Shown here in pieces: positions 23,611 through 64,000 of a stretch of DNA of 64,000 nucleotides. A program made the translations under genes and the position numbers. Source of the DNA: Blasia pusilla. Lineage: Eukaryota. The notes under the pieces were generated by a model, which did no database searches, was not told the DNA's origin, and worked only from the letters and a program-made list of their open reading frames with translations. Location: assembly GCA_050084515.1 (NCBI GenBank), contig CM114271.1, positions 14,632,001 to 14,696,000 of the forward strand. Reading direction: 5' to 3'. How positions within the stretch are numbered: position 1 is the first letter of the stretch; every line of letters begins with the position of its first letter.

Positions 23611-23789
23611 CTACATGACACACAACGGAAGTATTGAGAATTGAAATAAAATGACCAAAAGAAGAAAGAATAAAAAGAAAAGAGAAGAAAAGAAAAGAGG
23701 AGAGAAGAGAAAGGAAATTAGTAAGGGCAATTTCTCATTTCCAATTTGATTTTCTTTAAAAATTAAAAATTGAATGAAAAAAAGAGAAT

Positions 23790-32156: not shown

Positions 32157-32179
32157 CACTGGTTGATTTTACTATACGA

Positions 32180-33298
32180 CACCGCTCCAAGCTCCAACAT
32201 GCTCCAATCTGTGTGCAACTGGAAAAGACGCCCCGTGATGAGTCTCCTCAAGATGGGCGTGAACGTCAATCTGTCTTAGAACAACTGAAATGCTTGCTCT
32301 TGCTCATCTCCCCAATGCCACTCGTGATCCACCTTGGTTAGCAAGGTTAGCGGCTTTGCAATCGAATTGAATCCCTTGACGTACCGTCGATAGAAGTTTT
32401 CCAATCCCATGAATGCATTAACACGGCTCACATCTGTAGGGCATGGAATGCGTGAGATAGCCTCTACCTTCGTCTGCTGAACACCAAGGCCCCCTGGGTA
32501 TATTGTATGACCTAAGTACTCAATCTAGTCGTAGAAGAACTTGCACTGGCCTCGATGTAGCTTCAGCCCATGTAATTGCAATCGTCAAAACACCTCCTCT
32601 AGATGTCGCTCACGCTCCTCAAGTGTGGCGCTAAAGACTACGATGTCATCAATATAACACCTAGCAAAATCTAGACCAGCCAAGATCCTATCCATGACCC
32701 TCTGAAACTCAGCCGGGGCGTTCTTTAATCCAAATGGTAAGAATCACCACTCGTACAAACAATCCTTCTTGTGAGGATCGATGCCCCAAAATATCGTCTT
32801 CTGCCTGTCCTCCAATGTGATAGGCAACTGATGGTATCCGGCTCGCAAATCCAATGAACGGAAGACCTTTGCGTGACCAATCACATCAAAGATCTCCTCA
32901 AGGATGGGCATGGCATACCTATTGGACTTTATCCGCCGATTGATAGGTCGGTAATCCCCACACATCCGTCTATCCGTCCAGTTGCCATGCACATCCTTCT
33001 TGGCGGGCATGACACTAGCAGATGCAAACTCCCCATGCGACATCTCCACTAGTCTTGCTCCGACCAAGTCCTGGCTCCTACTCTGAATCAGAGCCCTCTC
33101 CATATCACTATACCTGTAGGGTGGTCGGAAGATCGGCGTATCACTCGACAACTCAATGCGGATCCCCGGTCCCTTCAGCGTACCCAAATCCTCCATGCTA
33201 AACGCAAAGTAGCTCCTATAACTCTTGAGGAATTGATGTATTCGGCGCCGCTCTCCTCCTGTCAACTCAGGCCCCATATCTGGCTCCCAAGTCTCCAT
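32180..33298 (-). pseudogene. Gypsy reverse transcriptase and start of RNase H
   Basis: RMCGDYRPIN, LDLRAGYHQL, LPFGLKNAPAEFQRVMD, CYIDDIVVFS, IEYLGH, FMGLENFYRRYV, LHTDWS; contains in-frame stops. Confidence 0.95.
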
Positions 33299-33629
33299 CG
33301 TGACTACGGTAGGACTCTCTGGCGCGGGTATTTGTGGTTGCTATGGTGCAACCCTGTCTCGAACAACAACACTCGGCCACTCTCCTATAGCCGATTGCAA
33401 ACTCTAATCTTCTCCACATGCAGCGCCCAAAACCACGCTCGATGCTGTGGCTATCATCTCCTAGCGTACCTGCAAAACATCCCAAGAAGTCCAAAGGTGT
33501 CTCTCCCGATCTCCCCCGGTGTGTAGATCTCCTCCGGTCTCGCCCCTAGCCACTGCCAACACCGTCTCGGTAGGCATGGGGCTCACCAATGCAATCGTTG
33601 TGATCTGTCGCGATCTCATACGGCGCTAC

Positions 33630-34590
33630 TCAGCCACTCCCAAGCTGAGGATCCATGTCAAGCTATTAATGTCCATCGTCTGACCCAAGACATGGTGTCA
33701 TGATGCCTCTGACACTGACGATACTGCCTTCACTCCTGTGGGAAATCCCATTGCTCGCTCTCTCTCATCGGCGTTGGGCTCCACCAACCCCTAAACCCTG
33801 GTCATCCCAAACCAAGCCAGGACCGGCCTCCTTGTATGCATAGGAAGCAAGAAAACTCACAAACGTGGGCAAGGCTACCCGCGGCCTGCCTAACCTATTG
33901 ACCACAGTCAAGGGTGGTCGATCATCGTGCCTCACTACTTGTGATTGACAACCTGGATCCAGAATGGAATCCATTAACAAATGGGAGGGGCGCCCCACTC
34001 TCGCATACGCCCTCCATAACATCGCATGGTGCACCAAGTTGGTCCACCATAGAGGCGGGCGATGGGCTCTAGAACCTACACTCGCCGCATCCAAGAACAC
34101 TGTTGGGCCAATCCAGGCACGCACCTGATGAGCACTCGTCACCACCCGTGACCTGGAGTCTCCTAAGATCGGCACATTCTCCAGAATGTAGGCAGGAGAA
34201 TGAGATTGGTGCTCCTACAAGTGCCGTAAGACCCTCAACATCTCCCAAAATAACCTAGACCGAGTGTCCGCCAACGCGCTGCCTCGTCCAACACTCGATT
34301 GGCCTTGACATGGACAACCGGAAATGACCAAATCAATGGTCCCTACCCACTCTTAGTCCTGCGCCCCCAACAACGAAATATCCCTCGGTAGGGAACTCTG
34401 GTACCCTTGTACCGTAGACAGTAAGTCGGGAAAACAAAGATGTAACTGCGCCACATGTCGTAGTGAGATGCGCCTTGCAACATCATCACTCTCCACATAC
34501 AGGTACTATTGCATCGCACTCTTGACTGCAAAACAACAGCTAACCTGGTGCTAATCCCTCCAAAGAGATCTAACACTCGAATACCCTCCT
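33630..34590 (-). pseudogene. DNMT3-like DNA (cytosine-5) methyltransferase domain within the retrotransposon polyprotein
   Basis: Motifs in canonical order: I RVLDLFGGI, II YLYVESD, III PRDI, IV IDLVISGCPCQG (catalytic Cys codon 34310-34308), V DTRSRLFWE, VI YILENV (34181-34173), VIII AHRPPLWWTNL, IX ERERAMGFP, X (R)HHVLGQTMD. Two frameshifts and four in-frame stops. Confidence 0.9.
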
Positions 34591-37500
34591 CCGGGAAACA
34601 CCACACAATGGGTGTGGTATCCAAGGGTGTCATCGTAGCACTCCCTGCTACCTCAGGCTCCTCAAACCTGTCACGCTCCGGTGCAAACGCCTCGCTCCAC
34701 GCGGTCTGCACGTGCTCATTTGCCAATCGTCGAAGCTCCTCAGTCAAGCCCCACAACGACACCTCTTCTCCACAGAATGATGCAGCTACCATAACACTCC
34801 TCTCCATTAAAATTTTAGGAACAAGAGTATCCTTTGCATGGACATATCCCTCAATCAAATCACTAGGCCAAGTGATGGCACTGTTAAATGCTGCTAAGGT
34901 CGCCACCTCTACTGGCCGTCCCTCGATCACTGCACATGTGAATCAAACAGGTAATGAGCTAACGCGCCCATCACCTGACTGCCATCCTGGTCTGTAGGAC
35001 GTTGACTCCTCCCAGTAATCCAGGGAAAACCCCATCGGGTATAATATTGTTCCACCAACCAAGACGTCGTAGGACTCTTCATCAGTCACTATCGCCTTGG
35101 CTCGCACCACGGAATTATCTGTAGGATGTCCCGGGAGAATCCTCACCATAACCTCATGGCGGGTGATATACAGTGTGATACTCGCTCCACCCAAGGATGT
35201 CTGTATCCGGAATGGACAACGCTCCACATCGGCTCTCGTCAAGCCCAATCCTCTAAATGACGCTTTTCCCAACATTAGGGGTTGCGCTCCTGAATCCAAC
35301 AAGACGCGCTGCACACTAAAAGCTCTACCTCCGTGACTAACCAATTGGAAGACCTCTCCTCGATTATCCAACAACACAATACCAGGAGAAGCCATGGCAC
35401 GCTCTATCCTGGGTCTAGCGACATCTCCGCCATCCTAGCACCCCTAATCTGCCATGAATTTGACATGGACGGCCCCAGCATCCGCTCCAAGGGCAAGTCC
35501 ATCACCTCCTGTGCAATCACCTCTCAACGTGGTGCAGGAACTCCAACTCCGCGCTCACATAGTGAAGTGGCCAGCCGAAAAGCCTCAACGGGCTTCCCCC
35601 CCAACGTCATAACATCAGAAGCAGAAAATAAAGGAGTGTGGTACACAATGGTGGCCGCCCCCAACAACGTGCTCGACACATGCCCCTCCTGAGCATCAAC
35701 AATAGGAGTCGTCATACTCGCTTCTCCCATCGCCCTTCGTGCCTGCACACCAACAACATCACCAACTCTCCAAGAACTTTGATGAGGACCCATCGATAGG
35801 GTCCTCATCGCTTTGGACAACGTGAAAGATTGAGGAAGCCTAATCTGTTTTCTGGCTTCTCCTCGATATGGATCCAACTCTGCGGTTGCTCCACGCGTCA
35901 CAACTGCGGCAGCCTCTATGTGGGAAATCCCACACATCCAACCAGGATCCTCCATATCTCTGGCTGCTCCATATGATGTCGATGCCACAGATCTGACATC
36001 GAGTAACCTCAATGCCATAGCCGCAATCTGCTCTTGTAGTTGCTGTATCTAAGCAACCATTCTAGCCTCACATCCAGTGTCTCCCTCGGCGCGTCTAGGT
36101 GGTGGTACTCTACCTCCTCCATGGGCAGCTCCACCACCCTGTCGGGCAACTCCAACTCCTCGTCCCTCAATGGGACCACCTGGTGCACGATCTCTAGCCC
36201 ACGTGGACCGGCTACTCGCTCTGTTGCCCTCTCTGGCCCTCGATCCGGATAAAACTCAAGATGTAAACTCAAACACCTGGCGCATGTATGACCATACCTC
36301 TGACAATAGTCACACTGATAACCTCTTGGTGCAGCACCATCTCCTCCTCCATGCTGAGGCACACGTCCATGACCATGACGAGTGCAATCGCGTTGATGAT
36401 GGGCTCCACCACATGACTAACAAGTGATAGTAGGCGGCTACTGTTGAGTCGCATATGAAGGCGCAGGTCTCTGTGGCACGGCCTCCCGGTATCCTCCCTC
36501 ATCTCGTGGTGCCACAGTCGACCTATCTCGGAGTTCACGTTGCTGCACAGGAGGTGCAGCCAATTGTGACTGCTCTCGCCCATAACCGATGGTGGCTACG
36601 CTCTCCTCCTCCATGTTGCGCTCAATGTTCTCAACGGTCCTAAGAACATATCTCAACATAGGGGAGGTGTTCATAAGAAGCACCCCCTCCCGCATCCGTG
36701 TCCGCAGGGTCTGGTCCAACATCGCGTACAATGACTGGATAGCGTGAGCCTCCGTCACCCCTTGAGTGATGTTGATCAACCAACACAAGCAAGTGTAAGC
36801 CTCACGTAAACTCTCACCAGGCGCCTCTGGAAGTCGTGGATGCTCCGCAACTTCTCCGTCCGTACCCTTTGGTAGTTGGCCCTCAACTCAGCGAAGAACT
36901 CAACCACGGGGTTGAACCTGGGACGAACCTCACTAGATGGTGCAACTGCTCTAGTGCGAGTGACCCCTCCAAAAACATCACAAGTGGAAGAGGAAGTAGC
37001 CTCTCTTGACTCCTCCTCCTCATCTGGGAACGGCTCCGTCCATGACACATAGTGTGGGTCATAGTAGAGTCGCCATGCCTCAATCTCGTGGGCATATATG
37101 TGGGAGAACTCATGGTAATCGTCCATGGGCGCCCCCTCTAAATTCAGGAACATACCGTTCCATGCTGTAAATGGGTTGAACTCTCTAGAGTTCTTGGCCC
37201 ACTGGAAGTCGCACCAACTCCTAAACTTTGCTATGAAATCGTGCAACTCAATCGTGCCTACTGCACCTGAAAACCTACGCGGTCCTCTACCCCGATCGTC
37301 CATCTCGTATGCCCAACTGGTAGGACCACTCACAATGTGTGGCGATGTGCTCACAAACTCCTCTACACCCTCCATCTTGTCTGACGATGATACATAAGAA
37401 GGTCGAGGTGGTCCCTTACGTGGAGACCTTCGGAACCTCGCACCACTCCGCGTAAAACCCTAAACCACCTCGCCTCTCCAAGTCCTGAACAGACCCCATG

Positions 37501-38703
37501 ATGACCCTCGTTCCCCTCTCACCCAATCACTCTCAATCTCATGAGTAATCCCTCAATCACTCATCCCAAACATGCGGCACTTGATCTACACTCTCCCTCC
37601 CTGAGACGTGTAACGTGCGGCAACATGCCGCGTGGTGCGGCAAATCGATCAGACTATCATCTCATCGACAACCTACCCTCAACTCCGGACATCCCACACA
37701 GGTATATGTCCCTTAAACCACATACATGAATGATGCTCTCAGCATCCACACAACCCAATATCCCCAAATAAATTATCCAAATCCGAGAATTCCTCACACA
37801 TGTAGGGTAAAAGACCAGAATGGGTAACCTGAACACATGTCGATGTCGAACCTCAGCAACTGCAAATCTTGACCCCAACTCAGTCTTGAAGACAACTCCT
37901 CCAATTAGCAAGTTGTACTCCTCTCGTACTAACGCTCAACCTCCTCGATTTGCGGTGCAAGTCGAGCGGTCCGGTGCGACACTGGCGGCACGAAATGGCT
38001 ACAAACAGCACGACACTCAGGAATGGGATGCGGCACTTGGCGGCATACCCTCCTCAATCAGAAATTCACACACTTTGCTCCTTAGTGAAGGAGCGGTTCC
38101 ATGATTGAGACGGTGTGATGCGACCATGAGCGGCACGACGCAGCAATCGGCGGTGCGTTGCGGTTACGGGCGTCACGGCACGGTACTTGATCGTCGTCGA
38201 GCGGTTACTAATCACAACATAGCAGCATGAAATCAAAACTCAAATACCATAACCGGAGGTCATCTGCCATCAAAGGTTGATGACGGAACTGCGATGACGG
38301 TGGCGACCAAAACAAAGTACGTGGTGGCAACGGAAGTCAGAGAATCAACGAACGTCGTGGAAGACCCTCCACTCTATAATGGCGGAAATGGCAACCAAAG
38401 GGTGGACCATGGACGGTTTATTGATGATGTTGATGACCAACCGATGACAGTGACGGTGAAGATTGATTGTTGATGGTGACTATGATGGCGACGGACGCCA
38501 TCGGCGTGGCGGCTGGTTTAGGGTTTGAACAATTTAACCCTACAAAATTGCCTAGTAATGGAAGTTTTGCAAGATTGACCATAACTTTTTGCTTGCAACT
38601 CCAAATTGCACATTATTTGTATCACAATGTGCATAGCTTCACGATCTACAACAGTGTCAAAAAATATTTTTAAAAAAAAATTCGAGTAAAAATTGATGGG
38701 GAT

Positions 38704-39579
38704 TGTTGTAAAGCCCAATGTCTCTTTCTCCTACACAAAATTTGGCAGCGCTTCCGTGCTGATTTTTCCCAACGAAAATATAAAACCTGTAAAAATACAA
38801 ATCAGCAAGCTACATGGTGCTCTTGAGAGCATCCGCATGGGGCAACCTACCCCCATACTCAATCCCTATAAAAAATTGTGGAGCGCTTCCTCGCGCCACT
38901 CTTCCACATGAACAATTGGCAAATGCAAAGAACAATCAAAGCATCCCTTGCTCCGGTGATCACTCTCATTAGCCGCTGAATGGGGAACACAGTCGTCAAC
39001 CTGCAAAAACAGCAAATGACCACCGAGCTCCCCCATGAAGCTCTCTCACTCTCTCATTCTCTCTTTGTAAAGTAAGATCCAATCTCTCTCTACACCATCT
39101 CACACCATAGCTCTCAAAGGTGTGCACTCTCTCTCATGTCAAACCAAACCCACTCTCCTAATGAGAGGCTTGGGTTACACTCACATGGCAAGGGACCATA
39201 GTTAGGCCGTCTTATGCCAAGAGGTTCAACAAAGAGAGAATGAGCTCTCAAGCTCTCTCTCTTGGAGGTATACTCCCTTCCCTCTCCCAAGCCCTCTCAA
39301 CGGTAACCTATGCTCGCAGGTCATCTCCTTGGATCTTGACCTTCTATAGCGGGTCAAGGGCCAATTCCCAAAGTTGAAATTCAACTCTCCCTAATATGGG
39401 AACTTACCCGAAATAGTAAGTTTCTCTATATGGCTTCAAATGAGCCGAAATGAAGGGGAAACCTGCTCTCTCAGGTTGTGCGAAGCCTCAACAGGTCATT
39501 CTCAACCTCTTGGGCGTGTCCTCCAATACTCGTGCAGACACTCTGCTAGATCCTACCGATCTATCCTAACACTCGTGAT
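38704..39579 (-). repeat. LTR-like repeat of the DNMT-Gypsy family (copy 1)
   Basis: Colinear with the reverse complement of 59121-59997 over its length, and with 49048-49562 over ~510 bp. Confidence 0.85.
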
Positions 39580-43566: not shown

Positions 43567-46500
43567 CTAAATGTAGGAAATTTGTTGCCACTTGTTTGCA
43601 CTAAAACTAGCATCTCGGTAGCCCATTTTGTTCAGCAGCCGATCCATTTGTCTAGCTCCCTCCTCATCACCTGCCCTCATACAGCGCCTCCAGATTTTGA
43701 AAATACTTTCTCTGGGTGGGGTGTGTCCTGCATTAACCTTCAAACCACCGTGTTGGAATTAGCAACATCACCCTAATAACTAATTACATCCAACCCGGAC
43801 AATATTCCAAAATGCCTATCACCATGACATTGACAAGTATCATTGTTCAAGCCAACCAGACCATTGAGGTAAAATGAGATCCAAACTTTCAGAATTTACG
43901 GCAACAATTTATAAGCAAACTAACAGTCAGATTGCATGAGAAACACTGGGCTTTGCTCGAATGTGGCCCCAGGAATGTGTAACAATTTTCAATAGATCAG
44001 GCTTATTAATTCATCTTCTGCCTCGAGTAACCACAAAAGAAAGATACACTAAACCCGGACCACCTACCATGGCATCCAACGTATCCATAGCAGCCTTGAT
44101 ATCTCGATTAACAAGATGGGCATGAATGAGAACGCTGTAAGTTCGATGATCTGGTGCTATTGCCATTTCTGACATGTAACTGAAAATCTGTAGCACTTCT
44201 GCAGTCTTCACACGACAAAATGAAGAACAAATACATTCAGAACCCCACTGCAGAATTCATGCAATATCTGTTGGCCACATCTGGATACAACAACATTCAG
44301 CTAAGGGTTGAAGCACACTTGTATCCAGACATGACCTATCCTTCAAGCTATGTGTCCAAACACCAGGATCCAAAAACGAAATCAAAACTTTCTTTTTGCC
44401 AAGCCAATGCTGAGTTCCGAAACTTGACGACAGCAAAATTTGTGAGTGATATGTTGAACTCTAGTAACCATTTTGAAGTGAAAAATATAAGCGGAAAGGC
44501 TCAGGATCTGATTGTTTGACTACTTAAAGGATCCATACTGAAGCCGAACAGGAATAAAAAACTGAACCCCTTCTAGCACATCTCAGACACTGCTTTTATA
44601 CCTTCCTGTTTTTGCCAAAGACATCCAACAGGGCATTGCAGGAGTGCACATCAGGCATCAAATTGAAAGTGGTCCCAATTGCTTCAAAAGTTTGGTAAGC
44701 TCGATCATAATCCCAAATGTTTGAACACCCTTGAATCACGCAATTGATTGCTGACAGAGCCACCTGTTTCTCACTACTTTGCATTTCTGCCAATTTGTAG
44801 TAAGCCTGTGAGCAACACACACACCTATTCTCGGCTTAGTATCAAAATTACAAACAATTTAAGCTTGAGGAAATTGAGATCACGATACAGTAAGACAACA
44901 GCTTCAAATGCTCTGATCTATCTTCCTCTCCAGATCCTGATAAAAGTGGCTGATTAACCTGTACAACAACATAGATAAACTGATACAGAATTTGATTTAA
45001 GAATTACATATAACTGTCGCCATTCAAATATCCAGAGTGACGAAGCTCAACTCTTGGTTGGTATTAAAGCACAAAAATTCAACATCACCTCAACCTCACC
45101 GCATCAAGAGCTGCAAACCCGCCTCGTGTACATGCCAATACAAGCGGTCGCAAAGATGAAACTGGGGAGAAAATTTCTCTCTCTACGTCATTCTGGGAAG
45201 CACCATACACAGATTCCATCTCATGCAATGTGCTAAAAGCTATGTCAAAGTCCCCAGCTGAAGCAAGTGCATGTATGCGGGCATGATAACTTGAGGGACA
45301 AGGAGGTTTGGTTCCACGGAAGGAACTTCGGAGTATGGTCCAGGCTTCTGTTGATAAAGCAGCATCCCCAGCCCTGGCAGCACAGGCAAGCATTGCATGA
45401 ATGCCACCTTCGTCCATTGTTAGGTTTCTTGTAGACCTGCTTAATTCTGTTTCGGAGAGAAATTTAAGGGCAAGGTAGACACACTCAGCATCGTCAAACT
45501 CTGCTGCAACTACAGCCAATTCCGCAATGTTTTGTAGTTGTGGTACAACATTATGCGCCTGCACACGGCAATACCAAGCATCTCAAGCCATCAGAACCCA
45601 GCCATAAGAGCTCTTTTAGTACCGAATGGACTCTAGAGCAACGTATGTAGTGAAGCCAATGGCACTAGGTTAGGAACTCTAGATACAGCGAAGTAACAGG
45701 GATCGATTGTGGAAACTCGTGAGTTAAATTATGGACAGCACAAGCACTTTCACATGGGCAGGAGTTACCTTGAGGTCTTTTAACAGGGACACAGCAGTCC
45801 TAGTGCGAAGCAGTCGTGTAGCAGCGAGCAGCAACTCGTTGTAGGTTGTTTTACTGGGCACATAACCCCTTTGATACATTGCTTGTAAATGCTTCATGGC
45901 AGAATCAAGTCTTCTATCGAGCGCACAAAGAACAATCACAAAGTTGTACGAATCGCCATCTGGTTGCGCCTCCGGCCCAGATTGCTCCATTCTGATTGAT
46001 AGAAAACCAGAAAGAGAGAATTGGTATGCGTGTCTAGTTCACTCGACGGAAAGACCCCGAGAAAATTCAATATCGATCGCCAATCAGACTACCGCAGTAG
46101 CTAGTGAGCCGAAAGGTTTTCACGGTCCGGCAAATCGTAGGGCGTAAAATCAAAACTTTGCACGACAACCTGCCAAATTTCTGAACACATATCAGATTTC
46201 ACGCACCTCTCAAGTATCTTCTCTGCCATTTGGGAATCCCGCTGACGAAAGATAGCTCGCAAGAGAAAATTGTACGTGAGGAGATTAGGCTTCGCTCCGC
46301 TGAACTCCATCTCCTTCACAATTTGCATCAGATTCTGAGGATCTACACCTAGCCTTAGTTTCGCATGAAGCAAGAGATTGTAGGCCATTACATTTGGGAC
46401 CTTTGCCTTCCCATCAAGATCCGGGAATTTGACCCAGTCTTCAAACAGTTGGATAGTTTCTTCCAGCTTACCAAGGGAAAGACGATTGGACATCTCTCTT

Positions 46501-46955
46501 CCTAGCATTTCAATACTAAGCCTTCCTACTTCAGATGGAGGACTCAGACCTGCCGGAAGGCCAGCTGCAGGGTTGGGAAGCACAGAGAATCCTGAAATAA
46601 CAGGGCTGTAACTACGGAGTGGAGAGGATACAGGTCGGTACCCTGGCGCAGGCTCCAGGGCAGGGATTTCTGTTTCCAATTGCGAGCTTTGAGAGACCAA
46701 AGCACTTGTTGTAAAGCTCCTCGTTCCATGAAGTGCACGACCAAATTTGATTATTCCTGACTCGTTGATCGAATCCCCAGATTTATCCGTCAAAATCGAG
46801 CTGCTTAAACGGTTGCTTTCCACTACGCTCACCTTCGGGGGTAGAAAGCTCAAGGAAAATAGACATCTGCTTAAACCCTTTAAAGTCGACGCATCTCCAT
46901 TAAAATGCCTCGACAAATACTTGGTGGACGCTCGCAAAGAAGCCATGCTTTCCAC
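43567..46955 (-). CDS. Mitochondrial P-class pentatricopeptide repeat protein (At1g26460-like), 6 exons, 647 aa
   Basis: Exons 46955-46207, 45991-45769, 45558-45100, 44805-44602, 44205-44068, 43737-43567. Total 1944 nt, in frame, TAG at 43569-43567. Arg/Ser/Leu-rich presequence. PPR motifs PNVMAYNLLL, PNLLTYNFLL, PDGDSYNFVI, PSKTTYNELL, PDVHSCNALL, PDHRTYSVLI. GCSNIWDYDRAYQTFEAI recalls the At1g26460 family (from memory). Confidence 0.92.
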
Positions 46956-47366
46956 CCGTGTAATTCAACCAGATCTCTCTTCACACTTAACCGGGCATCG
47001 GAAGCACGAGCATCAGAGGTGCCGGATCGACTTGTAAGCGTCAGGACTACTGGTTTAATCAATTTCCAGCTCCTGCGTCGTCTCGTGCTCTTCCAGCGGT
47101 CGCATCTTTTCCCTCCTTTTGAAAATGTGCATCACTTCCTGTTCCTGCCGATCACGCCTGCACCAATGCCCTGTCCAGAAAAATAACAAACACCGCTCTA
47201 CCTAAAACCCCCGCAACCGATTCAACGATCTCCGTCACATAATCTGAGATTGATTACATGTTGATTTCTTCGAAAAGTCGAACCCATGGTACATCAAAAC
47301 CCCCCACACTCCTCACTCTCGTGAGAATCAGACTTCGTTTCGTTGCGTATCCCGTCCTTTCACAGT

Positions 47367-47375: not shown

Positions 47376-48919
47376 TTGGACGGAGACTCACGGAACTCAA
47401 CGGAGAGGTTTGTCTTATTTCACGAGGGCGTATCGTAATGAGGGAAAAAGAAGAAATTTTTTTCTTTGTAATTCAAACCACCCCTTCGAGAGGAATGGGA
47501 GAAAACCAGTACCTTTTAGGATTTTGCCTTTTATAATGGAATAACAAGAATAGATGGGGAACAATCGTATTCGGATCGGTGCTAACACATCAGATGTTTG
47601 GAGGGAGAACACTAATCCGGACACACATATATCCTATTTCATATTAATGACAAAATTAATACCAAGCTCGGATGCTAATAGATGCTAACATCCTACCTTT
47701 CAAAATTCGCATTCTAAAGTCAAGAAAGTGCAAAATAATTTACATTTTGCAAGCTATGTAGGGGTAGTAAATAATTAGTAAACATTTGTGGAAGACACTT
47801 GGATAACCTAGATGGGAAAAAAGGAGGGGGGGGGGGGAGAGTGTATGTAGGGGCCGTAAAGACCAAAAATTGTGATTAGAGAATGGAGATGACGGAACAC
47901 AAAAAATGCTCCATGGTTGACCGAAAATAGGTGTTTAGTTCTTGTATGGCAAAGTTACCATGATTCTCCCTCCATGCATAGACATGGTGGGTGCTTGGCG
48001 GGAAAATCTTGGAGCAGCAAGCTTCAAGCTTATGAACTTATTCCACCTTGTAGTACCTTATGTGCTTATTTTAGACGTTGAGCATGCATCAATAGAATGT
48101 TGCCTAAGTGGGAAGGGTTCTTGTTGCAAAGTTGGTGGATGTTGAGATGGAAAAAGAATTCAATTATGAATTCCCTCCGACTTGGGTGAAAGATTGTACA
48201 AGTTCTTACCAACAAAGAATGTCGTTACACTTACCATGCGTGCAAATTCCTCATAAATAACCATAATGGACGTTGTAATAAAACTATAGAATCTTGAAGG
48301 GGCCCTAAAGAGATTACCGACCACGTTCATAGTGAATACGACTATATTTGGTAGTGGATACTCTTTTTGTGATGTGATGGACCATGTAGTCCATTGTCTC
48401 TCGAAGTATATTGTAAGGCATGTTGGTGATGGACTTAACTAAGGTGATTTCGGAAGTTTCTTTCGAATGTTTAAGCATGGACAAGCATGTGTTTCATGTT
48501 CAACTACAATCGACAAGGTTGTAGATGCTACTTGTAGAGCATAGCATGGGTTCAATGGAAAGTGTTGCTCATAGAGCGACATTGCATCTATTTTCAACTT
48601 CAAGGTCACTTCCACTTGCTGTGAATGTGGATGGAGATGCACAATCAAAAAATATAATTTGTTCATTTGGTACAATAGACGTGATGAGCCGCATAGGCAA
48701 AAACCTACTCAACAAGTATCCAAGGAGAAAACGTGACGTTCATGTTGTAGTGGCCAAATCTCATCATCAAGTGAAGGACCTAAAAAGAAGCTTTGATAAC
48801 ACTAGAGGCACCATGAATAGGTTGGAAGCCAAATTTGATAAATTTTGCCATCATGTAAGCTCATTAGTGGAGGCTATTAGATTCATGATTGAGTCTTTGA
48901 AGGTAAGTGTTCTTGGCAT

Positions 48920-50630
48920 TGTCCTGCGCATACACATCACTACACAACATACATTGTTGTCACCAAACATACACATAAACACATACGATCCCATGCTAAC
49001 TCATGGCATCCAAACAACGAGACGAGAAGTACCAAAATATCTCCAATTGTAAATCAATGAGATCTCTCTCAACATCTCGCACCAAGCTCTCCATGGTGTG
49101 CACTCTCTCCCTCATGTCAAACCAAATCCACTATCCTAATGAGAGTCTCGGGTTACACACACAAGGCAAGGAGGACCATAGCTCCGTCGCCCCATGCCAA
49201 GAGGTTCAACAAAGAGAGAATGAGCTCTCAAGCTACATCTCTTGGAGGTATACACCCTTCCCTCTCCCAAGCTCTCTCTCCTCGATAACCTAAGCTCCCA
49301 GATCACCTTCTTAGCTCTTGACCTACTGTAGCGGGTCAAGAGCCACTTCCCAAAGTAGAAATGCAACTATGCTCTAAATAGAAACTTACCCAAAATAGTA
49401 AGTTTCTCTACATGGCTCCAAATGAGCTGAAACAAAGGGGAAATCTGCTTTCTCAAGTTACCCATGGTCTCAACAGGTCATCCTCAACCTTCTAAGGTTG
49501 TCCTCCAATATATCCAAAGGCACTCTACTAGATCTCATCGATCTATCCTAAAAGACGTGATAGTTGTCGTGCGCATACACATCACTACACAACATACATC
49601 GTTGTCACCGAACACACACATAATCACGCACGATCCCATGCTAGCTCATGGCATTCAAACAACGATACGAGAAGTACCAAAATATCTCCAATCGCCTCCT
49701 AATTGGTGATTAGGTCCCTCTAACTCTAGATAGCCATCTATTCCTACCTACCATTACATACATCTCTCGGACGCTAAGAGCAAAAAGGTCGGTTGATCAT
49801 GTGGCCCCATCACTAGTCGTCTTCTTGTCATCCATATCACAGATACAAGTCGGAATGTAGAACTACCTACGTTATGTACATCTGGGACACATCCATCATC
49901 CCTGATGAACCCTAGTGAGAGATGGCGTCAACATACATTGCAAGCTAAGCATGTAGGAACTACTGCTAAGCTCGTATCAACTATACCATCAATGTTAGGA
50001 AGGCAACATGGCGCACAATTACGCACGTGATCCTTCCAAACCATACCATCGCGTACCTCCAATAAGAGAACACCAGATGGCAAAACCTCACGTACTCTCA
50101 AGATAGTGCGTTTTGCAGTCATATCCAATGTCGTGGGTGTCGTTAACTGCAAGTAGACATAATCTCCCTGATGAAACCTCCGGATAGTAGGTCGGTAATC
50201 ACCTCCCTGAATAGTCACATACCTCAACGTATCCCGATACTGCACAATCGCCAAGTTCTCAAACGCCATGGGCATCATTCTCCGAAATAACTCAGCCCTC
50301 TGAGAACATGCTCGCATCCACACATGAGGGTCATCAAGGTTCAACACCTCGCCAACATCTCGACAAATGGCCGCAGGTAGATCCTGCTCTTGGCCATAAA
50401 GTAGCAAGTACGGTGAGAAAGACGCTAAGGATGTCTGCCTGCTGAATCTGTATCTCATCGCCAACCAAGACTACTAGAGGTCCCAATCTCCTAGATGACC
50501 TCTCTGCAAGCCATACTTTGCAATCCTATCTTCATCGTCTGCACAACCCTCTCCGCTAGTCCATCCGCCTCAGGATGATCTCGTGAAGTGGTGCGGTGGT
50601 CGATCAACGCCGGATCACACAAGGCCTGAA
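48920..50630 (-). mobile_element. 3' end of a Gypsy element of the DNMT-Gypsy LTR family: integrase C-terminal half, PHD remnant and terminal repeats
   Basis: Integrase core HRTTSRDHPEADGLAERVVQTMK (~50600-50530), then AMRYRFSRQTSLASFSPYLLLYG and FHQGDYVYL. Ends CNVC and, after a frameshift, LTPSLTRVHQG*WMCPRCT*. Segment 49562-49048 matches the family LTR. Confidence 0.85.
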
Positions 50631-51914
50631 ACAAGGGCTATTGTGACTATTTGAAGCCACAAAAAATAAGAAGCAGCCCCTATGCTTATATGCCTACATT
50701 TGACAAATAGATGCTCCATCAAAAAAATGCACAAGAAATAAGTGTCCTTCCTTTGGAAATAATCATCCGCCATCTTTTGCATGTCCATGGCACCTACTCA
50801 ATCGGATCTTTAAACTAACATGGTCAACTCACAAAAGAATCCCAAATTTTTTCCATGAACAATGATTTAGAGAACGTCAGGACTAATATCCCGCCAAAAT
50901 TTACTACAATCATGAAGCTTGAATTTGAGAAGTAGGAGGCGCATACTTTTTGACATCACCCAAGCTTGCAACATCTTATACTTGAAGAGGGTGCATAGGC
51001 TTGGTTTGTATTGATGTGTTGAAGCGTCAAAGACTAGGTGTTAGAAGAAAAAATTTCATCTATTTCATGCAACAATATTTGTAGTTTAAGAGAGAATAGA
51101 TACTAGGCTTTGATAGGAGACAATGTGTTTAGTCAGATGTACATGTGGAGAGGCCTTGAGTGACCTACATGCATTTTCTAAGAATGTCGTAGAGATTTCT
51201 TGGAGGTTCTTGATTTATTAAAAGCCTGCTATGTAGATGGAGGTTGAGATTGAGGACCAATAACCACCGTATATCTAATATATGATACTCACCTTGGGAT
51301 ATAACAAGGTCAACTCCTCCACGATAGGTTTCTTCTCTAGTAGGTATTGTGGGCATATACATCGCTACACAACCTATATTGATATCAAATATTAATCATA
51401 AGTATATTAACATAATACATACTACATAACATATCACATAAAGAGGTCATACAATAATAATCAAGCCAAATCGTAGACTTACTCGGTATGAGGAAATCCA
51501 TATTTAATGCATGTCAATAACATCTTGTCGTAGCTTATGCTTGGAAGGCTCAACTATGGAAAGATGAGCATCTTCAAATCTCCCTTTAGGATATACCTCA
51601 TGGTATTCATATTATCCATTCTAGTCTTAATCTTGCACTTGTGAGGATTTTCCTAAGGTGTTGGGTATTTGACGTATTACACTGAAAGGGAAAATATGTA
51701 TTGAAGGTAGAATATTTGTGGATTAGGCACGGCATATACTTATATGGGATGCCTTTGAGGGGTTTCCCATCATCTATATTATGATAGAGTCAACCTATAC
51801 TAGTATAGATTGTTACCACGCCATGCCATATATGGTATGCAAACAATCTACGCTACATATATACCAAATCATATGGCAATGTGGATTGGGGTTTTTGTGT
51901 TTAGTTGGCAATTA

Positions 51915-53329: not shown

Positions 53330-53800
53330 AAGCTCAACCCAATATACTTGACATCAAAATGGAATTTCAAGAAATCAAACATACATGTAGATACATCCTT
53401 AGGAAGATGTTAGTCAATTGTTCTACTATGGTCCAAAGGCATCGAGATAGGGTTGGATATTATCGTCCCAAACTTGAAAAGCTTTTCAATAGTTTATCAG
53501 CTTTAAAATAACCACGTATTACCACCATTAATGATTAACTCTATATCTAGAAAATACGTGAGCTCTCCTAAGTCTTTCACCTCAAACTTTGCTTGCAATT
53601 GCATTTTGAGATTATAAATCAATTCCTCCTTCCTATCGATCATAATTAAGTCATCAAAAATTTTGTCCTTAAACTCAAAGTAAGTAGAGTGAAGAATCTT
53701 AATTGCAAACTTGAAATTCAAAGGGGTAGTAGCTTTTTTTAGTCCATAAAGAGCCTTCTTAATATGAAAAATGGCCACAATACATTGATTTGCCATTCTA
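53330..53800 (-). mobile_element. Degraded Ty1/Copia RT fragment
   Basis: KKALYGLK and KFEVKDLGELTYFLDIE in ORF 53503-53850. Confidence 0.75.
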
Positions 53801-56639
53801 CTTTGCAACGGAGCTGAACACAATGCCTTCAAGCATTCCACTATTTCCATACATTTTGGGGATTTAAGTAGGGGGCTCCATCCCTTATGTTGCTATTTAT
53901 ATTTTACTTCCACTTTAGATCGTGTACACTTGTCATAAATAGCATTGTCAAAGTTGTACTAAGTGCAAGGTTGTAAGCTTCTCCAAGGCTTCTTCTAAAA
54001 AAGCCTATTTAATAATATAGATCTCTTTAGAGCGATTGATTTTATATACACTCTTTAAACTCGCAAACTTGCTATACTTTACCCATTTTGTCTAGTAATT
54101 TTTCTAAGATCCATAATGTCCACTTGCATAAAAGTATGCTTCTAAGCTTCCTTCAAGTTTCATGATATGATGTGCCTCATTTGAATTGCTTCCATCGTTT
54201 TCTACACATATGTTTAAAAAAACCACCTTTTTCCTCTAATGTATTCTTTCCTATCGGTTGGATCCTTTGTGTTCTCTTGAACTTGTGTGATTTTAATGCC
54301 AACCTATCCAATAGTCTTTCATGCGTAGGCATTTTTTGTTCCAATATCTCTTTCACACAAGGTATACTTGGTGGGTTTCACACAAAGTTTTCTTCTAGAT
54401 CTATCTTCTTTTCGTATCCATTTCATACCAAGAATATTTAGTAGCCTTTCATAGAGAGTCACTCCTCCGTGGACCCAACTTCTTTTGCAAGTTAATTTAT
54501 TTTATGATTCTATGCTCAAAGACCCCCCATTTTCACCACACTTCTATGTGTGATGTCTTAATCTAAAAGGCTACTACTTTACCTTTTCAAATCTATACAA
54601 GATTCAAGATTAGAATTGGTCTCTTCTCATGGCCACACCGTGTAACGTCTCTTACGATTATTTCAGCCTCAATTTTTATATTACAACTGTGTCTTTATTT
54701 TTCCACTTTGAGCCACAAAATTGCATGCCATGATGTTGAGTAATTTTTAACAAAATATACAATCATTTTCCCTCTTAAGAAACAACCCCAAAACTAGGAT
54801 GAGACATGTCAAAAATATACCTTTTCTCTCTTTTCCTTCTTCCAAAACCTATTTTAGCCTAACATTATTTTTCAAATTTGACTAGATAGATAGATAGATA
54901 TCAAAGCGTGAGACAAGTGGTTGAAAATAAGAAAAATAGTAGATTGAGTGCGGGGCAAGTAATAGTTAAGGGATCTTTATTGCTTAGATGCAAAAGAAAT
55001 CACAACATAGCACAATCATTTCAAGGAAAGATATATGAACGTTGTGGATTAGTATATAGAGAAACAAAAGAAGATCAATAGATGTAGATATAAATACCAA
55101 AGTCAAACGTATGTAGCATAGAAAAAGCAGGACTCTCTCTTGTAAAATACCAATGATGTTCATTATGTACTTTTCTAGATCTATTAGTAAAGTATAAATT
55201 GTGATCTGAGGGGGAATCCAAGTTGGAGGCCCAATACGTATGCCTTATTTGATTGATGTTGAGTTTTTTTGTATGTTAATAAGTGTAGTGTGATTCACTT
55301 TCCATATTACGTTAGTGTTGAGAACCTTCCATCTATCATGAGTTTTACGGAGATAAACGAGATTATATTGAGATCTAAAGGAGTCTTTTGTAGTTCCTAT
55401 TTTAGGAGATTATTGTGAGTTGCTACCTTGGAGGTGACCTATGTGTATACGTCATCCTTGCCTTTGTACGTGGCACGCTCTAACATGTTGCTACTTTTTA
55501 TTTGTCTTGTGGCATATCTTGAGGCCTTTTATATTGATGATGGCACTTGGATCCATGAGGAAAAATCTAGGGGCATTTGATATGTGTTATATAGCGAAGG
55601 TGTCCTCTTTCATGAGGCCTTATTCTCATATGGTAACATTTGGTTAAAGTGGGAGTTCTCACAATATTCACAGTCAAGAAAAAATAGATGGTGTGCCTTA
55701 GCAGGAAGGTTACATATGTAGCAAGATATGGAAAGGGCATAAGTGACCTCCCTTGGTGATATATGTGAAAAAATCAACCTCTGTAATCATTCTTGGAATC
55801 TTTTTGGAAGTTTCTTGAAATATATTGGAGATTTCTGATTAGGTAGGAACTTGCAAAGTAGGTTGAGATGACATTTATGAACATGTTACCTTCTTGGAGC
55901 CTTGGGGGCCTTAAGAGGGTATGCCAAAGGGGAAGGCCTATAGAGGCTCATCTTTCCACAATTGAGCCCTCTAAGCGTAGGTTAGGGAAAAGTATTACGG
56001 ACATGCAATAGACATAGAATCCCTCAGATCGAGGGTGGATTTGGCTCAGTTTGTATTTATTTCCCATTTGATTTTCATGTATAGCCTCTTTTTGTGATGG
56101 AGTATATATGGGTGTGACATGTTTGTGATCAATAGTGTATGAGTGTATGTACGTGACAACAATATATATTATGTAGTAGTATATATATGCATCATGAATT
56201 ATATGTGTACTCTAGATATTTAGACCTACTATATATGGGTACCCAACACATAAAAGTTCTTATGGAGTTGTCAAAAAGAGCATATATACTTTATGAAACT
56301 CATTTGGAGCCCATCTTCCTTAAATCATACCCTTGTTGGGATCTATGATGGGGAGCAACTATGTTATTATATTGAGTTTGGATTCTCTTGAGTAAGAGTG
56401 GACTAAGATTGATTATAGGTAATGCATTCATACTTTATTGCATATTGTCTTATATCTTTTGATATTATCACAATATATATTATTGAATAGATGCCAAGCT
56501 CTATTGAGATTGAATGTTGTGCTAACATATTGCATATCAGCTTTACATTACATACCCTTATGATTCTAATTATTATATGAAGCCTATTTATATTGGAGTG
56601 TGTTAAGTAATTCATACATACATATTTTTGGATTCATAA

Positions 56640-59120: not shown

Positions 59121-59997
59121 TGTCACGACTTTTTAGGATAGATCGGAGAGATTTGGTAGAGCGCCTTTGCGAGTAGAGGAAGACAGGCTCAGTAGGTTGA
59201 GGATGACCCGATGAGATTCCAGGAAACCTGAGAGAGCAGGTTTTCCCTTCATTTCGGCTCATTTGGAGCCATATCGAGAAACTTACTATTTTGGGCAAGT
59301 TTCAATAGTTGGCAAAGTTGATTTTCCACTTTGGGAAGTGTTCGTTGACCTGCTATAGTAGGTCAAGAGCCAAGGAGATGACCCATGAGTATAGATTACC
59401 GAGGAGAGGGCTTGGGAGAGGGAAGGGGTTTACCTCCAAGAGAGAGAGAGAGGGCTTGATAACTCATTCTCTCTTTGTTGAACCTCTTGGCATGAGGCGG
59501 CGGAGCTATGGTCCCTTGCTTTGTGAGTGTAACCCAAGCCTCTCATTAGGAGAGTGGGTTTGGTTTGACATTGAGAGAGAATGCACACATTTGAGAGCTA
59601 TGGTATTGAGAGAGATTGGATCTACTTGATTTACAAAGGGAGAATGAGTCAGTGGGAGAACTTCATGGGGGAGCTCGCTGGTCACTTGCTGGTTTTGCAG
59701 GTTGGGAATAGTATTCCCCATGCAGCGATTCATGGGAGTGCTCACCGGATCAAGAGCCGCTTACTTTTGATGTTTCCTTTGCCGATTTTTTGTGTGGAAG
59801 AGTGGCGCACGAAAGCGCTGCCCAATTTTTGGTAGGGATTGAGTATGGGGGCATTTTGCCTCATGTTGGTACTCTTGAGAGCACCGTGTAGTTTTCTGAT
59901 TTGTATTTTCACAGGTTGTACATTTTCATTGGGAGAAATCAGCGTGCAAGCGCTGCCAAATTTTGCACATGAGAAAGAGACGTTGGGTTGCACGACA
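59121..59997 (+). repeat. LTR-like repeat of the DNMT-Gypsy family (877 bp, TG...CA)
   Basis: Starts TGTCACGAC and ends GCACGACA; reverse complement of 38704-39579. Confidence 0.85.
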
Positions 59998-60112
59998 ACC
60001 TGCACCAAGAGCACCGGCATGGAGCACCGGTGTGGAGAAATCCTCCCCCATACTCAAGCTATTTTAGGTAAGTCCCCTTTTGAGTATATGATCAACTTTC
60101 TATTTTTGATAA

Positions 60113-62022
60113 GTGACCCTTGACCTCCTACATCAGGTCAAGAGCCAAAGAGGCGACTTGGGAGCATAGGTTACCATTGAGAGAGCTTGGGAGAGGGGAG
60201 GGGTATACCTCAAGGAGAGAGAGCTTGAGCACTCATTCTCTCTTTGTTGAACCTGTTGGCATGCGGCGGCGGAGCTATGGTCTTGCTTGCCTTGTGTGTG
60301 GAACCCAAGCCTCTCATTAGGAGAGTGGATTTGGTTTAACATTGAGAGTGCACACATGTGAGAACTATGGTGTTGTGAGAGAGATTGAATCTTATTTTAC
60401 AAAGAGAGAATGAGTAAGTGAGAGAGCTTCATGGGGGAGCTCGCTGATTGCTCGATGTTTGGTGCAAGTTGGGGGATCATGTTCCCCGCTTCATGGCTCA
60501 TGGGAGTGCTCACTGGAGCAAGAGCCGTGCGAGTTTGTTGTTTTTCTTTGCTGATTTTTTGTAAGGGCAAGTGGCATGCGGAAGCGCTACCCAATTTTTG
60601 ATAGGAATTGAGTATGGGGGAGGATTTCTCCATGTCGGTGCTCCCTGTCAGTTTTTGGTGGAAAATCAAATGGAGAAACCAATTGACAAGATCATAGATC
60701 GAGAAGTGGTGTACGCTGATGAAGAAAGAGTGCATAATTTGGAGATTGGACCATGGAGTTCTGATAATTTTTGTCGGGCTGCCATAGCCACCGTTCCAAG
60801 GTCAAGTAAGGAAAGATAGTGGAGATCCAATTTTCCCCAGGGCTTATTCTAGTTTAAAAAATAATTTAAAAAATAATAATACTGTTGATAGGGGACAATA
60901 TCTATCCTACCACGTCCTAGCCGACTGTCCCGGAGATGCGCAAACCGATTGCGCACTTGCTACTGCCGTTGTATGTTGTGTGGTCTGTCGACGCTTGAGG
61001 GCCGCAACCCGGTTGTCGGACTTCCTAGTGCCAACAAAATACTGAGGTGCCGTGTAGTTGTGCGTTGCTCCATCCGACCATGCAAAACTGCCGCCCATAG
61101 AGCCAGGCGTCTGAATCTCTGTCCCCGACCGCCACGGCAGCCTGTGTTCAGGGCCGATTGTTTGGCAATAGGCAACGCGTTGCTAGTAGACTGTTTTCAA
61201 CACCACGTTGCTTGTTGCCGCACAACACACGTCTCAGTGAGAGAGTGAAGGTTTAGTGCCGCGTGTTGGATTGAGTGATTGAGTGATTACTCGCAAGATT
61301 GAGAGTGATCGTGTTAGAGGGGCACGAGGGTCATCACAACGTCCTTTTGGGACTCTAAGAGGCAATGTGGTGGACCTGAGAGTAACTCTAGAGGGTTTAC
61401 CCGGAGTCGTGCGAGGTTTCGAGAGTGTCCACATGAGAGACCACTTCGATCTTCTTATGCGTCGTCTTCAAACAAGGGGGAGAGTGTAGAGGAGTGTGCT
61501 AGTGATCCACCACACATATTGAGTGGTCCTACCAGTTGGGCATACGAGATGGACGACCTGGGTAGAGGACTGCGTAGGTTTTCGGGTGTTATAGGCACTA
61601 TAGAGTTAGATGACTTCATTGGGGGGTTTAGGAGTAGGTGTAACTCATAGCGGGCTAGGAACTCCAGAGAGTTCAACCCGTTTACAACATGGAACGGATT
61701 GTTCCAGCATTTAGAGGGGGCATCTATGGATGATAACTATGAGTTCTCGAAGAGATATGCCCATAAGATTGAGGTCTGGAGACTCTACTATGACCCAGAC
61801 TACGTATCATGGACTGAGTCATTTCCAGATGAGGAGGAGGATTCAGGAGAGGGTTCCTCCACCAATGATGGTTAGGAGGGGTGACTCGCACTGGAGCAAT
61901 TGCATCGTCTAGTCGAGTTCATCCCAGGTTCAACCCGGTGGTTGAGTTCTTTGTTGAGTTTAGGGTTAGCTACCAAGGGGTACGAACGGAGAAGTTGCGG
62001 AGCATCCACAACTTCTAGAGGC
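60113..62022 (+). mobile_element. Third DNMT-Gypsy family copy: partial LTR, leader and gag N-terminus
   Basis: 60113-60640 repeats the internal part of the LTR. 61476-62022 is colinear with the gag at 37390-36825 (SGPTSWAYEMDD.GRG.RRFSG..GTIEL.DF; YQ.VRTEKLRSIH.F). Interrupted at 62023 by a Copia element. Confidence 0.85.
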
Positions 62023-64000
62023 TATTGAAGATTGAGTTACAGTCAAGCTTATGAGACACATGAACTGCTACATTTGGCACTCAAAGGAAGTAGGGAAGCT
62101 TAATCTTAGTTAGTCAATTAAGCACAATTATCTTAACTAGGGTTAGTTAATCACAGTTAGTCTAACTCGAGACTTTGGTTAAGGGTAGGGTTAGGGTTTT
62201 CTTGTACATATCCCATATAATTGAGAAGAGGACCAACCTCCATTCATTCTCTTATTGCAGATTTCGTTCTCCATGGTGATGTGTGTATGTGAGAGCCGTT
62301 TTCCAGGAGTTATGATTGTTAAGCAGTTTTTCACATGGTATCAACGCGAGAGGAGAACATCACTTGAAATTCTTAGTGTTTGAAGAGAGAAGAGAGGCAA
62401 GAGAAGGCACAATTTCAGTTTGGGAGAATGAAATTTTATTCAAAGCTCAGTGGGTGCAGATTTCAAATGGAGCTTTGACGGTGATAAAACTTTGGAGGCA
62501 TTTTTTAGGGCTTTCCTGATCGATTCAGCCGTTTGGGTCCGCTGAGGCTAGAATGATGCCAAAGGTTGGTTCTAGCAATCTTGTAGAGCTCGTTGAGAGC
62601 TTAACAATACACCCAAACTCGCTCAATTTTTGACACTATGAGCTCTTGCAGCATCAATTTCCATGTAGGAAAGTGCAATTAGTGAAGAAAAGTTGTGCAG
62701 TTTGCTCTCTACACGCCAATTTTGACCAGTTCTTTCATACAGTTGATCAATTTTGGAAAATTTCACGTCAATTTTTGTGTAGGAGTGGTCTATGCTTCAA
62801 TTGGAGCAGTAGAAAGCGTGAAATTATGTTTTTGTGAGTAAAATCGTTTATCATGGAGTATTCCTCAACAGCAATCACAGGCGAGAATCTAGACAAGTAG
62901 AATTACAATGTCTTGAAGTTTCGCATGAAACAATTCTCATGGGTCAAGAAGTATGGGAGCTTATCACAGGTGATAAGTCCAAGCTAGAAGGAGACTCAAC
63001 AGACTTGAATGTTCGCGCTTGGAACAAACGCGCAAGGCAAGTAATCCATTATATTTCAATAACGATAAGTTCGCCTATGATAGGTCACATCCAAGATGTT
63101 GATATTCCAAAGGAGGCCTGGGATGCATTGGAAAAGTTGCTCGAGACATCTAAAAAGGCCATAAAGCTTCAATTGAAATAGTAATTGAATGAAGTGAGGA
63201 AAGGATCGCAAAGCATCAATGATTATATTTTGAGTATCAGACATATTATTGATCAGTTGAATAGCATTAGAGTGATAGTAGAAGATGATGATCTAATTTT
63301 ATTCACTCTTCAAGGCCTTCCAAAGGATTACAAGTCCTTTGAGACCTCTATCTCAGTGAGAGAGAAGTATCCAACCTTTCAAGAGTTAGTTAGCAGCAAA
63401 GGGTCCATGGATCTTACAATTACTGTTGGATAAAGGGTAATTATGCAAAATTTTGCTTCAAGAAGAGGGCAAATATGAGAACATGAGCCTTACAGCAACA
63501 AAACTATGTGGAGCAACAACACCAAGAGGAGTACCAAGAACAACAACATTCACAAACGTAGCATCTCTTGGTCATGACTCATCATATAGGAGCAATGGTC
63601 AAGAAAGACTCGACAGTAGATTGGTACATTGACTCCGATGCATCAAATCACATGACCTCACAAGCGAGATGGTTCAGTAGTTTGGAGCCGGTGAAAGATC
63701 TTGCAATTGTGCTCATAGGAGATGACACTCAACATCATATCACGCATACCGATAAAGTTCCAATAGCATCAGATGGTCTTTGTGCTCTTGGAAATGTTCT
63801 CTATGTTCCTACCATTGCAAGAAATCGGATCTCTGTAAGACAGATAGTAGAAAAGGGTTATCAAGTGAAGTTTAACGCAGATGGTTATTTTATTGAAAAA
63901 ATGGATGACCAGACTACAATAGCCATAGGAACTAGATCTGGAAGAATGTTCAAATTAGATGTTTCTATGCTAGAGATTCAAACAACAATATATGGTCAAA
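62023..64000 (+). mobile_element. Ty1/Copia LTR retrotransposon 5' portion (LTR, iMet PBS, gag, protease), degenerate; runs off the window
   Basis: LTR 62023-62335 ending TTCACA; PBS TGGTATCAACGC at 62336. UBN2-type gag (LMGQEVWELITG, KEAWDALEKL, LQGLPKDYKSF). Protease WYIDSDASNHMT (~63620-63660) and NVLYVPTIARNRISV. Confidence 0.9.

Follow-up and report, generated by a model that had tools for sequence, protein, structure and literature searches.

What kind of element left the integrase fragment on the minus strand of this 64,000-nucleotide stretch of Blasia pusilla DNA (contig CM114271.1; hereafter the window), and how did that integrase end when the element was intact? A sequence-only reading of the same DNA had proposed that the integrase of a long terminal repeat (LTR) family ends here in the remnant of a PHD finger rather than in a chromodomain, and that an intact element would carry both a chromatin reader and a DNA methylation writer. 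That reading proves to be essentially right. The locus (~50635-48919, minus strand) is very probably the dead 3' end of a bryophyte-branch Ty3/gypsy retrotransposon, the integrase of which formerly ended in a PHD finger, and the intact relatives of which carry a DNMT3-like (DNA methyltransferase) domain too. Judged from these relatives, the lineage appears to be Viridiplantae-wide, and the polyprotein of its bryophyte branch is predicted to run gag-protease-DNMT3-like-RT-RNase H-integrase-PHD (RT, reverse transcriptase; RNase H, RH; integrase, INT).

The integrase open reading frame (ORF) of the window belongs to a pseudogene, of which it is a fragment. The upstream part, a 48-aa piece at 50494-50637 (minus strand), represents the last portion of the integrase catalytic core; the copy breaks off at ~50632-50635, beyond which lies unrelated AT-rich DNA. 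Relatives align to this piece by tblastn at 50631-50509 with 66-79% identity for the closest, and the core region matches the Ty3 integrase (PDB 7q5b, E 2.5e-14). A stop-to-stop ORF of 180 aa at 49931-50470 (minus strand) contains the C-terminal region as far as the point at which the PHD finger begins. A frameshift near 50509-50518 puts this ORF in a different frame from the core, and family reads hold an additional base at 50518/50519. Downstream of the finger, from the TAA to the repeat termed B1 below, 49693-49871 (minus strand) is an untranslated 3' internal region, in which the only ORF of at least 35 aa (49757-49927, 57 aa) has no Pfam match.

Since the ORFs of the window are too fragmented for Pfam, domain calls were taken from relatives. 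A phmmer search with the 180-aa ORF against 1.84 billion representatives returned 996 matches at E<=1e-3, of which the best 150 were analysed, and a separate word-indexed search for longer proteins listed the 20 closest. Among the best 150, a complete Cys4-His-Cys3 finger stands at the end of the ORF in 113, and a further 26 are too short to judge; the remaining 11 have room for a finger without showing the full pattern, nine of them having a partial finger, one a variant Cys/His finger and one none. In agreement with this count, PF00628 is found in all 22 long relatives that were scanned and in 17 of the 20 closest proteins, as well as in P0172, P0175, P0178, P0260 and P0261, and no chromodomain (PF00385), the domain that would mark a chromovirus, was detected in the same 22. 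The proposal of a PHD remnant in place of a chromodomain is thereby borne out. As a separate observation, one distant relative, P0318, lists both a PF00385 chromodomain and a PF00628 PHD finger together with RT and integrase.

All eight zinc ligands are conserved across relatives of just 35-75% identity. The closest of these (72-75%) are the Marchantia polymorpha proteins MARPO_0060s0038 and Mp_7g09570, one protein of Calypogeia fissa and two metagenome proteins, and a Sphagnum fallax protein is 57% identical to the 180-aa ORF. In four of the five closest the finger follows the pattern C-x2-C, ~10 residues, M-L-[LV]-C-D-x-C-x-R-G-W-H-M-x-C-L-T-P-[PA]...G-[RQ]-W-x-C-P-x-C, and four of the five (P0171, P0172, P0174 and P0175) terminate 1-4 residues past the final C-P-x-C, as the window does; the fifth, P0173, is without the last Cys pair and continues further. 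The order of pol domains in the relatives is RVT_1, RT_RNaseH, Integrase_H2C2 and rve, that is, the Ty3/gypsy order, of which the window holds only pieces. A DIRS-like identity was considered and rejected, rve and Integrase_H2C2 being present and no Phage_integrase being found in the 40 relatives scanned; only the layout of the repeats, described below, resembles DIRS.

How, then, did the finger of the window copy come to be broken? Its remnant occupies 49872-49946 (minus strand), as defined by the reading frames, the alignment with homologues and the reads. The frame of the 180-aa ORF ends ...VVPTCLACNVC-stop, and a second minus-strand frame continues ...QCMLTPSLTRVHQG-stop-WMCPRCT-stop, in which the last stop, the TAA at 49872-49874, is the natural one. 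Both the homologue alignment and the reads place five surplus bases at 49942-49946, directly before the finger. It is these five bases that cause the change of frame and make up part of the apparent 'CxxC': the native first Cys is the C of 'QCML' (49935-49937), and 'PTCL' is native sequence upstream of the finger. In addition, ~25 codons (~75 bases) are gone, a stretch that begins with the second Cys and extends as far as the Leu behind the sixth ligand, with the junction at 49929-49931; W-x-C-P-x-C is at 49878-49895, preceded by an in-frame TGA (49896-49898). The copy retains Cys1 and the last Cys pair only, out of the eight ligands of the Cys4-His-Cys3 pattern of PF00628. Of the earlier description, in which the letters match the first and last parts of a PHD finger, the remnant itself stands, and the 'CxxC' in the ORF frame has to be given up in part, as a product of the insertion. 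The deletion of the middle, likewise proposed, is confirmed by the absence of those ~25 codons relative to relatives and reads, to which the 5-base insertion is an addition. An initial model of the break, with a gap after the second Cys and one base missing, was dropped, the insertion together with an in-frame gap giving the better fit to the reads. Moreover, in tblastn with intact relatives the piece in the second frame is linked to the integrase match, as with residues 573-591 of P0172, which align to 49931-49875 at 63% identity. The window copy is dead and without function, and its state is that of ordinary decay.

Other copies of the family are in better condition, as seen from the reads of four runs (whole-genome shotgun (WGS), RNA and two contig runs) aligned to 49650-50650 at >=80% similarity. 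In the WGS run, 26,174 reads matched, from ~1% of the run, the majority being <90% alike to the window. If the 19 reads that are >=99% alike represent the locus itself, then, as a rough inference, the family numbers about a thousand copies. Read depth falls in 49922-49955, and WGS reads break at 49931 (870 reads) and 49947 (1114 reads); the loose letters of these reads, translated on the minus strand, encode the absent middle of the finger. The five letters at 49942 are omitted in 28 of 64 reads and in three contigs in each of the two contig runs. At the upstream end, 2143 family reads diverge from the window past 50632, with a depth of 0-1.8 in 50636-50650. From the RNA run came 1448 reads with a strong strand bias (100-228 vs 3-20 per bin), in keeping with sense transcripts if the library followed the usual convention. 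Of these, 78 carry the middle of the finger at 49930, and other copies of the family are therefore transcribed.

The writer of the proposed pair is found in a second copy, at 39579-32132 (minus strand), which comprises the 5' half of the element: a terminal repeat A1 (39085-39579, by repeat alignment), gag, knuckle, protease-like, DNMT and RT regions, and the start of RNase H. The gag, Cys/His knuckle and protease-like ORFs lie at 34946-37459 on the same strand, as read from their translations, with the Marchantia proteins P0209 and P0217 matching 35715-34517. There follows, at 33560-34633 (minus strand), a decayed DNMT3-like domain in three frames with stops, in which DLFGGIS, GCPCQG, ENVP and ERERAMGFP can still be read. 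RT and the start of RNase H (32132-33340, minus strand; RVT_1 E 8.6e-11 on 32588-32743, with tblastn support) close the copy, which is cut off at ~32132-32180; no other integrase or RNase H match was found elsewhere in the 64-kb window. In other words, the DNMT domain lies between protease and RT, with motifs I, IV and VI present, and the copy has the feature by which Gypsy-DNMT3 elements are recognised, a DNMT3-like domain within the polyprotein. The domain is 57-60% identical to P0209 and P0217, in both of which PF00145 precedes RT and RNase H. The DNMT ORF alone gave 63 protein matches, Marchantia (with one Riccia) at 45-67%, Calypogeia at 59-64% and Sphagnum at 40-64%, and among PDB structures the closest counterparts of the intact homologue P0191 are DNMT3A/3B/3C (E 7e-11). 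It may be added that the DNMT-bearing copy (32000-38000) has a GC content of 49-53%, vs 34-42% in the remaining region, a strong contrast between element and host.

That one and the same element would carry both domains is supported by the relatives. Among the best 150 integrase relatives, 36 also match the DNMT region of the window, the order being RT-DNMT-INT in 18 and DNMT-RT-INT, as in the window, in three. P0260 has the whole series in a single ORF, with DNA_methylase at residues 82-140, then RT, RNase H and integrase, and PHD at 1470-1513, and P0261, P0143 and P0060 are DNMT-to-PHD single ORFs of the same kind. In the Marchantia protein Mp_7g09570 (P0175), which matches both window copies, the protease end is accompanied by two parts of the DNMT, motif I and the C-terminus, as well as by the integrase end and a PHD finger that is intact. 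Calypogeia P0253 (RT-RH-INT) connects the two sets in another manner, being 80% identical to the DNMT-bearing P0217 of Marchantia and 90-93% identical to the INT-PHD proteins P0171 and P0174. Further afield, a metagenome scan with P0001 gave 21 related loci in the order RT-RH-DNMT-INT-PHD, with a best-segment identity of 38-55%, mostly 38-45%, the contig of P0001 itself not being among them; terminal repeats were found in none of the six metagenome loci examined.

What might the finger have done in an intact element? Its nearest counterparts in the PDB, with E down to 7e-15, are CHD4 PHD1/2, PHF12, KDM5B PHD1, PHF21A, KDM5A PHD1, DPF3, UHRF1 and AIRE. What these fingers recognise is histone H3 unmodified at K4 or at its N-terminus. 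Moreover, the Trp that precedes the His in this family aligns with a core Tyr of CHD4, and not with a cage Trp. On account of these two features, a preference for H3K4-unmethylated chromatin may be guessed. In intact copies the PHD finger occupies the position that the chromodomain has in chromoviruses and, by analogy, may anchor the integration complex on the tails of histone H3, probably those with unmethylated H3K4; the DNMT3-like domain would methylate the cDNA or the new insertion, a suggestion that follows the discussion in PMC5890265.

It is tempting to go further and to regard the two domains as a transposon-borne reader-writer pair, in which the finger would dock on unmethylated-H3K4 nucleosomes and the DNMT would methylate cDNA or insertion, imitating the way in which ADD and DNMT3 act together when hosts methylate de novo; the retention of the PHD finger in both of the RT clades described below, despite two DNMT positions, would then suggest that the pairing has been selected repeatedly in green algae and bryophytes. 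This proposal is speculative and, as a whole, unlikely. A finger with a different task altogether, guiding or regulating the DNMT3-like domain of the element in the manner of ADD, or recruiting host chromatin factors, is somewhat easier to credit, if still on the doubtful side. The occurrence of both domains together in at least 75 proteins, and a DNMT nearest to DNMT3A/3B, would be in keeping with such a role; however, the finger is fused to the C-terminus of the integrase, far from the DNMT and in the place of the chromovirus chromodomain, and it is also present in relatives in which no DNMT was detected, all of which speaks against it.

In the sequence-only reading the two copies were connected by an LTR-like repeat in consistent orientation, and the manner in which this repeat is arranged bears on what the 3' end represents. 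At the locus, the repeat termed A2 (49048-49563, minus strand) is 82% identical to A1 of the DNMT-bearing copy (39085-39579) and 79% identical, in inverted orientation, to 59643-59123. It is flanked by two repeats of 129 nt on the minus strand, B1 (49564-49692) and B2 (48919-49047), which are 92% identical to one another; from the repeat comparison and the reads, B2 is the presumed 3' terminus of the element. A third copy, at 59123-62022 on the plus strand, consists of a 5' part only (A1 at 59123-59643, gag at 61266-62022, the latter being the gag of the DNMT-bearing copy in inverted orientation) and is cut by a copia element. It contains a partial tandem repeat of A1 at 60059-60385, and its 5' repeat and leader show a tandem duplication of ~770 bp (59330-59448 vs 60105-60223; 59773-59874 vs 60542-60643). 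In element orientation, A starts with T(A/G)TCACG and ends with TTTACA, thus having TG..CA-like ends; no obvious primer-binding site or polypurine tract was noticed on reading the flanks of the window copies, none of which is full length. Both 5' ends bear A alone with no B adjoining, and the overall layout is A-coding-B-A-B, assembled from three partial copies and not from one whole element. The earlier claim of a shared LTR-like repeat thus holds insofar as A is shared by both gag-bearing copies, and needs amendment in that the arrangement is not a plain LTR pair.

Could B-A-B be no more than a local tandem duplication of 645 bp at this one locus, in a family with ordinary paired LTRs? The window has a single 3' end, and its third copy has a tandem duplication of its own, the unrelated one of ~770 bp, both of which lend the idea some plausibility. 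Against it, 1313 family reads pass from the end of B, which they match, into A-like sequence (agreement 0.62), the 5' A repeats of two copies are without an adjacent B, and an equal layout has been published for the relatives in Klebsormidium (legends of PMC5890265). A purely local duplication is accordingly unlikely.

Whether the PHD-bearing and DNMT-bearing pieces belong to one family was addressed with an RT-RH tree, built by a quick IQ-TREE search from 72 proteins and the window RT, with its breaks read as X. Matches to P0209 covering >=330 of 380 residues gave 128 candidates, of which the 60 at >=40% identity and the first 12 of the remainder were used. The tree divides into two clades of 27 and 46 rows, each with a support of 100. 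All 27 rows of the first have the DNMT between RNase H and integrase, and 23 of them have PHD, the other four stopping short of the integrase C-terminus. The 46-row clade contains every row with an upstream DNMT, many PHD rows, two Klebsormidium proteins (P0288 and P0337) and the window copy, which groups with P0209 (DNMT) and P0253 at a support of 98. Near-identical pairs in RT-RH bring DNMT and PHD bearers directly together (P0254, with DNMT, and P0161, with PHD), a second such pair being P0245 and P0301. The clade with DNMT between RNase H and integrase includes Haematococcus, Scenedesmus and many metagenome proteins, and that with DNMT between protease and RT includes Klebsormidium, Closterium and bryophytes; the difference in position could come from one capture followed by a move, or from two captures. 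Because the RT tree mixes DNMT-bearing and PHD-bearing rows, and because there are proteins that hold both domains, the elements do not fall into separate families, the outcome which the sequence-only reading had itself named as fatal to its claim.

Several points nevertheless weigh against the reading of the locus as the 3' end of a single DNMT- and PHD-encoding family. All three window copies are truncated, with no full-length family copy among them; the DNMT and integrase copies do not overlap, and the A repeats are merely 79-82% alike. Pfam finds neither DNMT nor PHD on the window's own ORFs, even at E<=10, such that both calls rest on relatives. Among these relatives, P0175 is a gene model that skips most of the element and attests co-location at one locus, not an intact polyprotein, and Closterium P0330 extends to the integrase C-terminus yet is without the PHD finger. 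The tree, in turn, is the product of a quick search only.

The lack of overlap between the two pieces and the divergence of their A repeats would also suit a PHD-only sister family without DNMT, which shares the A-type repeat of the DNMT-bearing family or has recombined with it, the more so as many PHD-bearing proteins begin at RT, with their upstream content out of view. Nonetheless, every row of the 46-row clade with known upstream sequence has DNMT, the pairs P0254/P0161 and P0245/P0301 show DNMT in one member and PHD in the other, P0175 and P0260 contain both domains, and the shared relatives rank alike for both window pieces (P0178 > P0181 > P0001), all of which makes such a sister family quite improbable. 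As to coincidence, the composite pattern L.P.L(4-9)W.CP.C is found once in a six-frame reading of the 64 kb, at the remnant, and never in 200 first-order Markov randomisations of the window read in six frames, in which W.CP.C alone has a mean of 0.095 per randomisation. Despite the absence of a Pfam PHD match on the window ORFs and the division of the motif over two frames, the notion that the PHD-like letters are due to chance, or to an exon of a neighbouring host PHD protein, is negligible, given this test, the contiguity of finger and integrase in those 113 relatives, and the reads that bridge the gap with finger sequence.

The preferred reading, a dead 3' end of a DNMT3- and PHD-encoding gypsy family, places the locus close to systems that are already known, namely the streptophyte Gypsy-DNMT3 elements, the PHD fingers of transposons, and LTR elements that combine a chromodomain reader with a methyltransferase. 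The nearest of these is KnitGypsy-Dnmt3 of Klebsormidium (de Mendoza et al. 2018, PMC5890265), for which the legends of Figs 1e and 4c give repeats in the order A-coding-B-A-B; a streptophyte 'Gypsy-DNMT3' is also named in the preprint 10.64898/2026.05.21.726589. The present family shares with KnitGypsy-Dnmt3 a gypsy pol with a DNMT3-like domain in the polyprotein, the A-coding-B-A-B layout and an RT clade. It differs in its bryophyte host, its closest named proteins being from Marchantia, Calypogeia, Riccia and Sphagnum, and in that the copies here are dead fragments. Neither a PHD finger nor Marchantia is mentioned in the text and three supplements of PMC5890265, the supplements being silent on KnitGypsy too, and the figures may show the finger.

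Among other comparisons, chromoviruses (Gao et al. 2008, as cited in PMC6673714) likewise have a reader of histone tails at the end of a gypsy integrase, with tethered integration as the presumed logic, the reader here being a PHD finger instead of a chromodomain. Chlamyvir was considered as a PHD carrier and set aside, its clade having a group I chromodomain according to PMC3350952. PHD fingers are common accessory domains of transposons, including CR1, Rehavkus and several Chlamydomonas elements (PMC8557442 and PMC6673714); unlike these elements as described there, the present family combines an integrase-terminal PHD with a DNMT. The EpiLTRs of the above preprint resemble this family as LTR retrotransposons that unite one or more DNA methyltransferases with a chromatin reader; their components are a DAM domain, a DNMT related to DNMT4 and a chromodomain, those here a DNMT3-like domain and a PHD finger. 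DNMT3 with its ADD domain also joins a DNMT3-type catalytic domain to a zinc finger reading the H3 tail in one product; here a canonical PHD finger, placed at the distal end of the integrase, is separated from the DNMT by >1000 residues. Full-text literature searches returned no description of PHD on DNMT3 elements, of their abundance in bryophytes or of the two DNMT positions, with the reservation that the figures of PMC5890265 may show the finger.

The fragment thus flags a large, transcribed family of bryophyte retrotransposons that encodes a DNMT3-type enzyme and a histone-reader finger, and that would make the choice of integration site and the use of methylation testable in a model liverwort. 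It is also of consequence for annotation. Several proteins of Marchantia, Calypogeia, Riccia and Sphagnum that are annotated as 'PHD-type domain' or 'DNA (cytosine-5-)-methyltransferase' appear to be pieces of this retrotransposon family and not host genes, and such misannotated pieces matter for counts of host epigenetic genes.

The remainder of the window is a mixture of host genes and other mobile elements. A host pentatricopeptide-repeat gene (44000-47000, minus strand) lies between the two retrotransposon copies, and a different gypsy-type element (28622-31505, minus strand), with a gag-like ORF, DUF4100 and a protease-like ORF, adjoins the truncated end of the DNMT-bearing copy. A Ty1/copia RVT_2 fragment is found at 53506-53892 (minus strand), and the copia element that cuts the third copy begins at 62822-63999 (plus strand) with gag and a Pol beta-barrel. 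Remains of a Helitron extend over 17380-22848 (minus strand) as consecutive broken ORFs for PIF1 helicase, the Pif1 2B domain and Helitron_like_N, and a 441-aa ORF within this region has no Pfam match. A host beta-ketoacyl synthase gene with at least two exons occupies 10122-13047 (minus strand), and 23777-23975 contains two AT-rich direct repeats of 89 nt, 110 nt apart and 97% identical.

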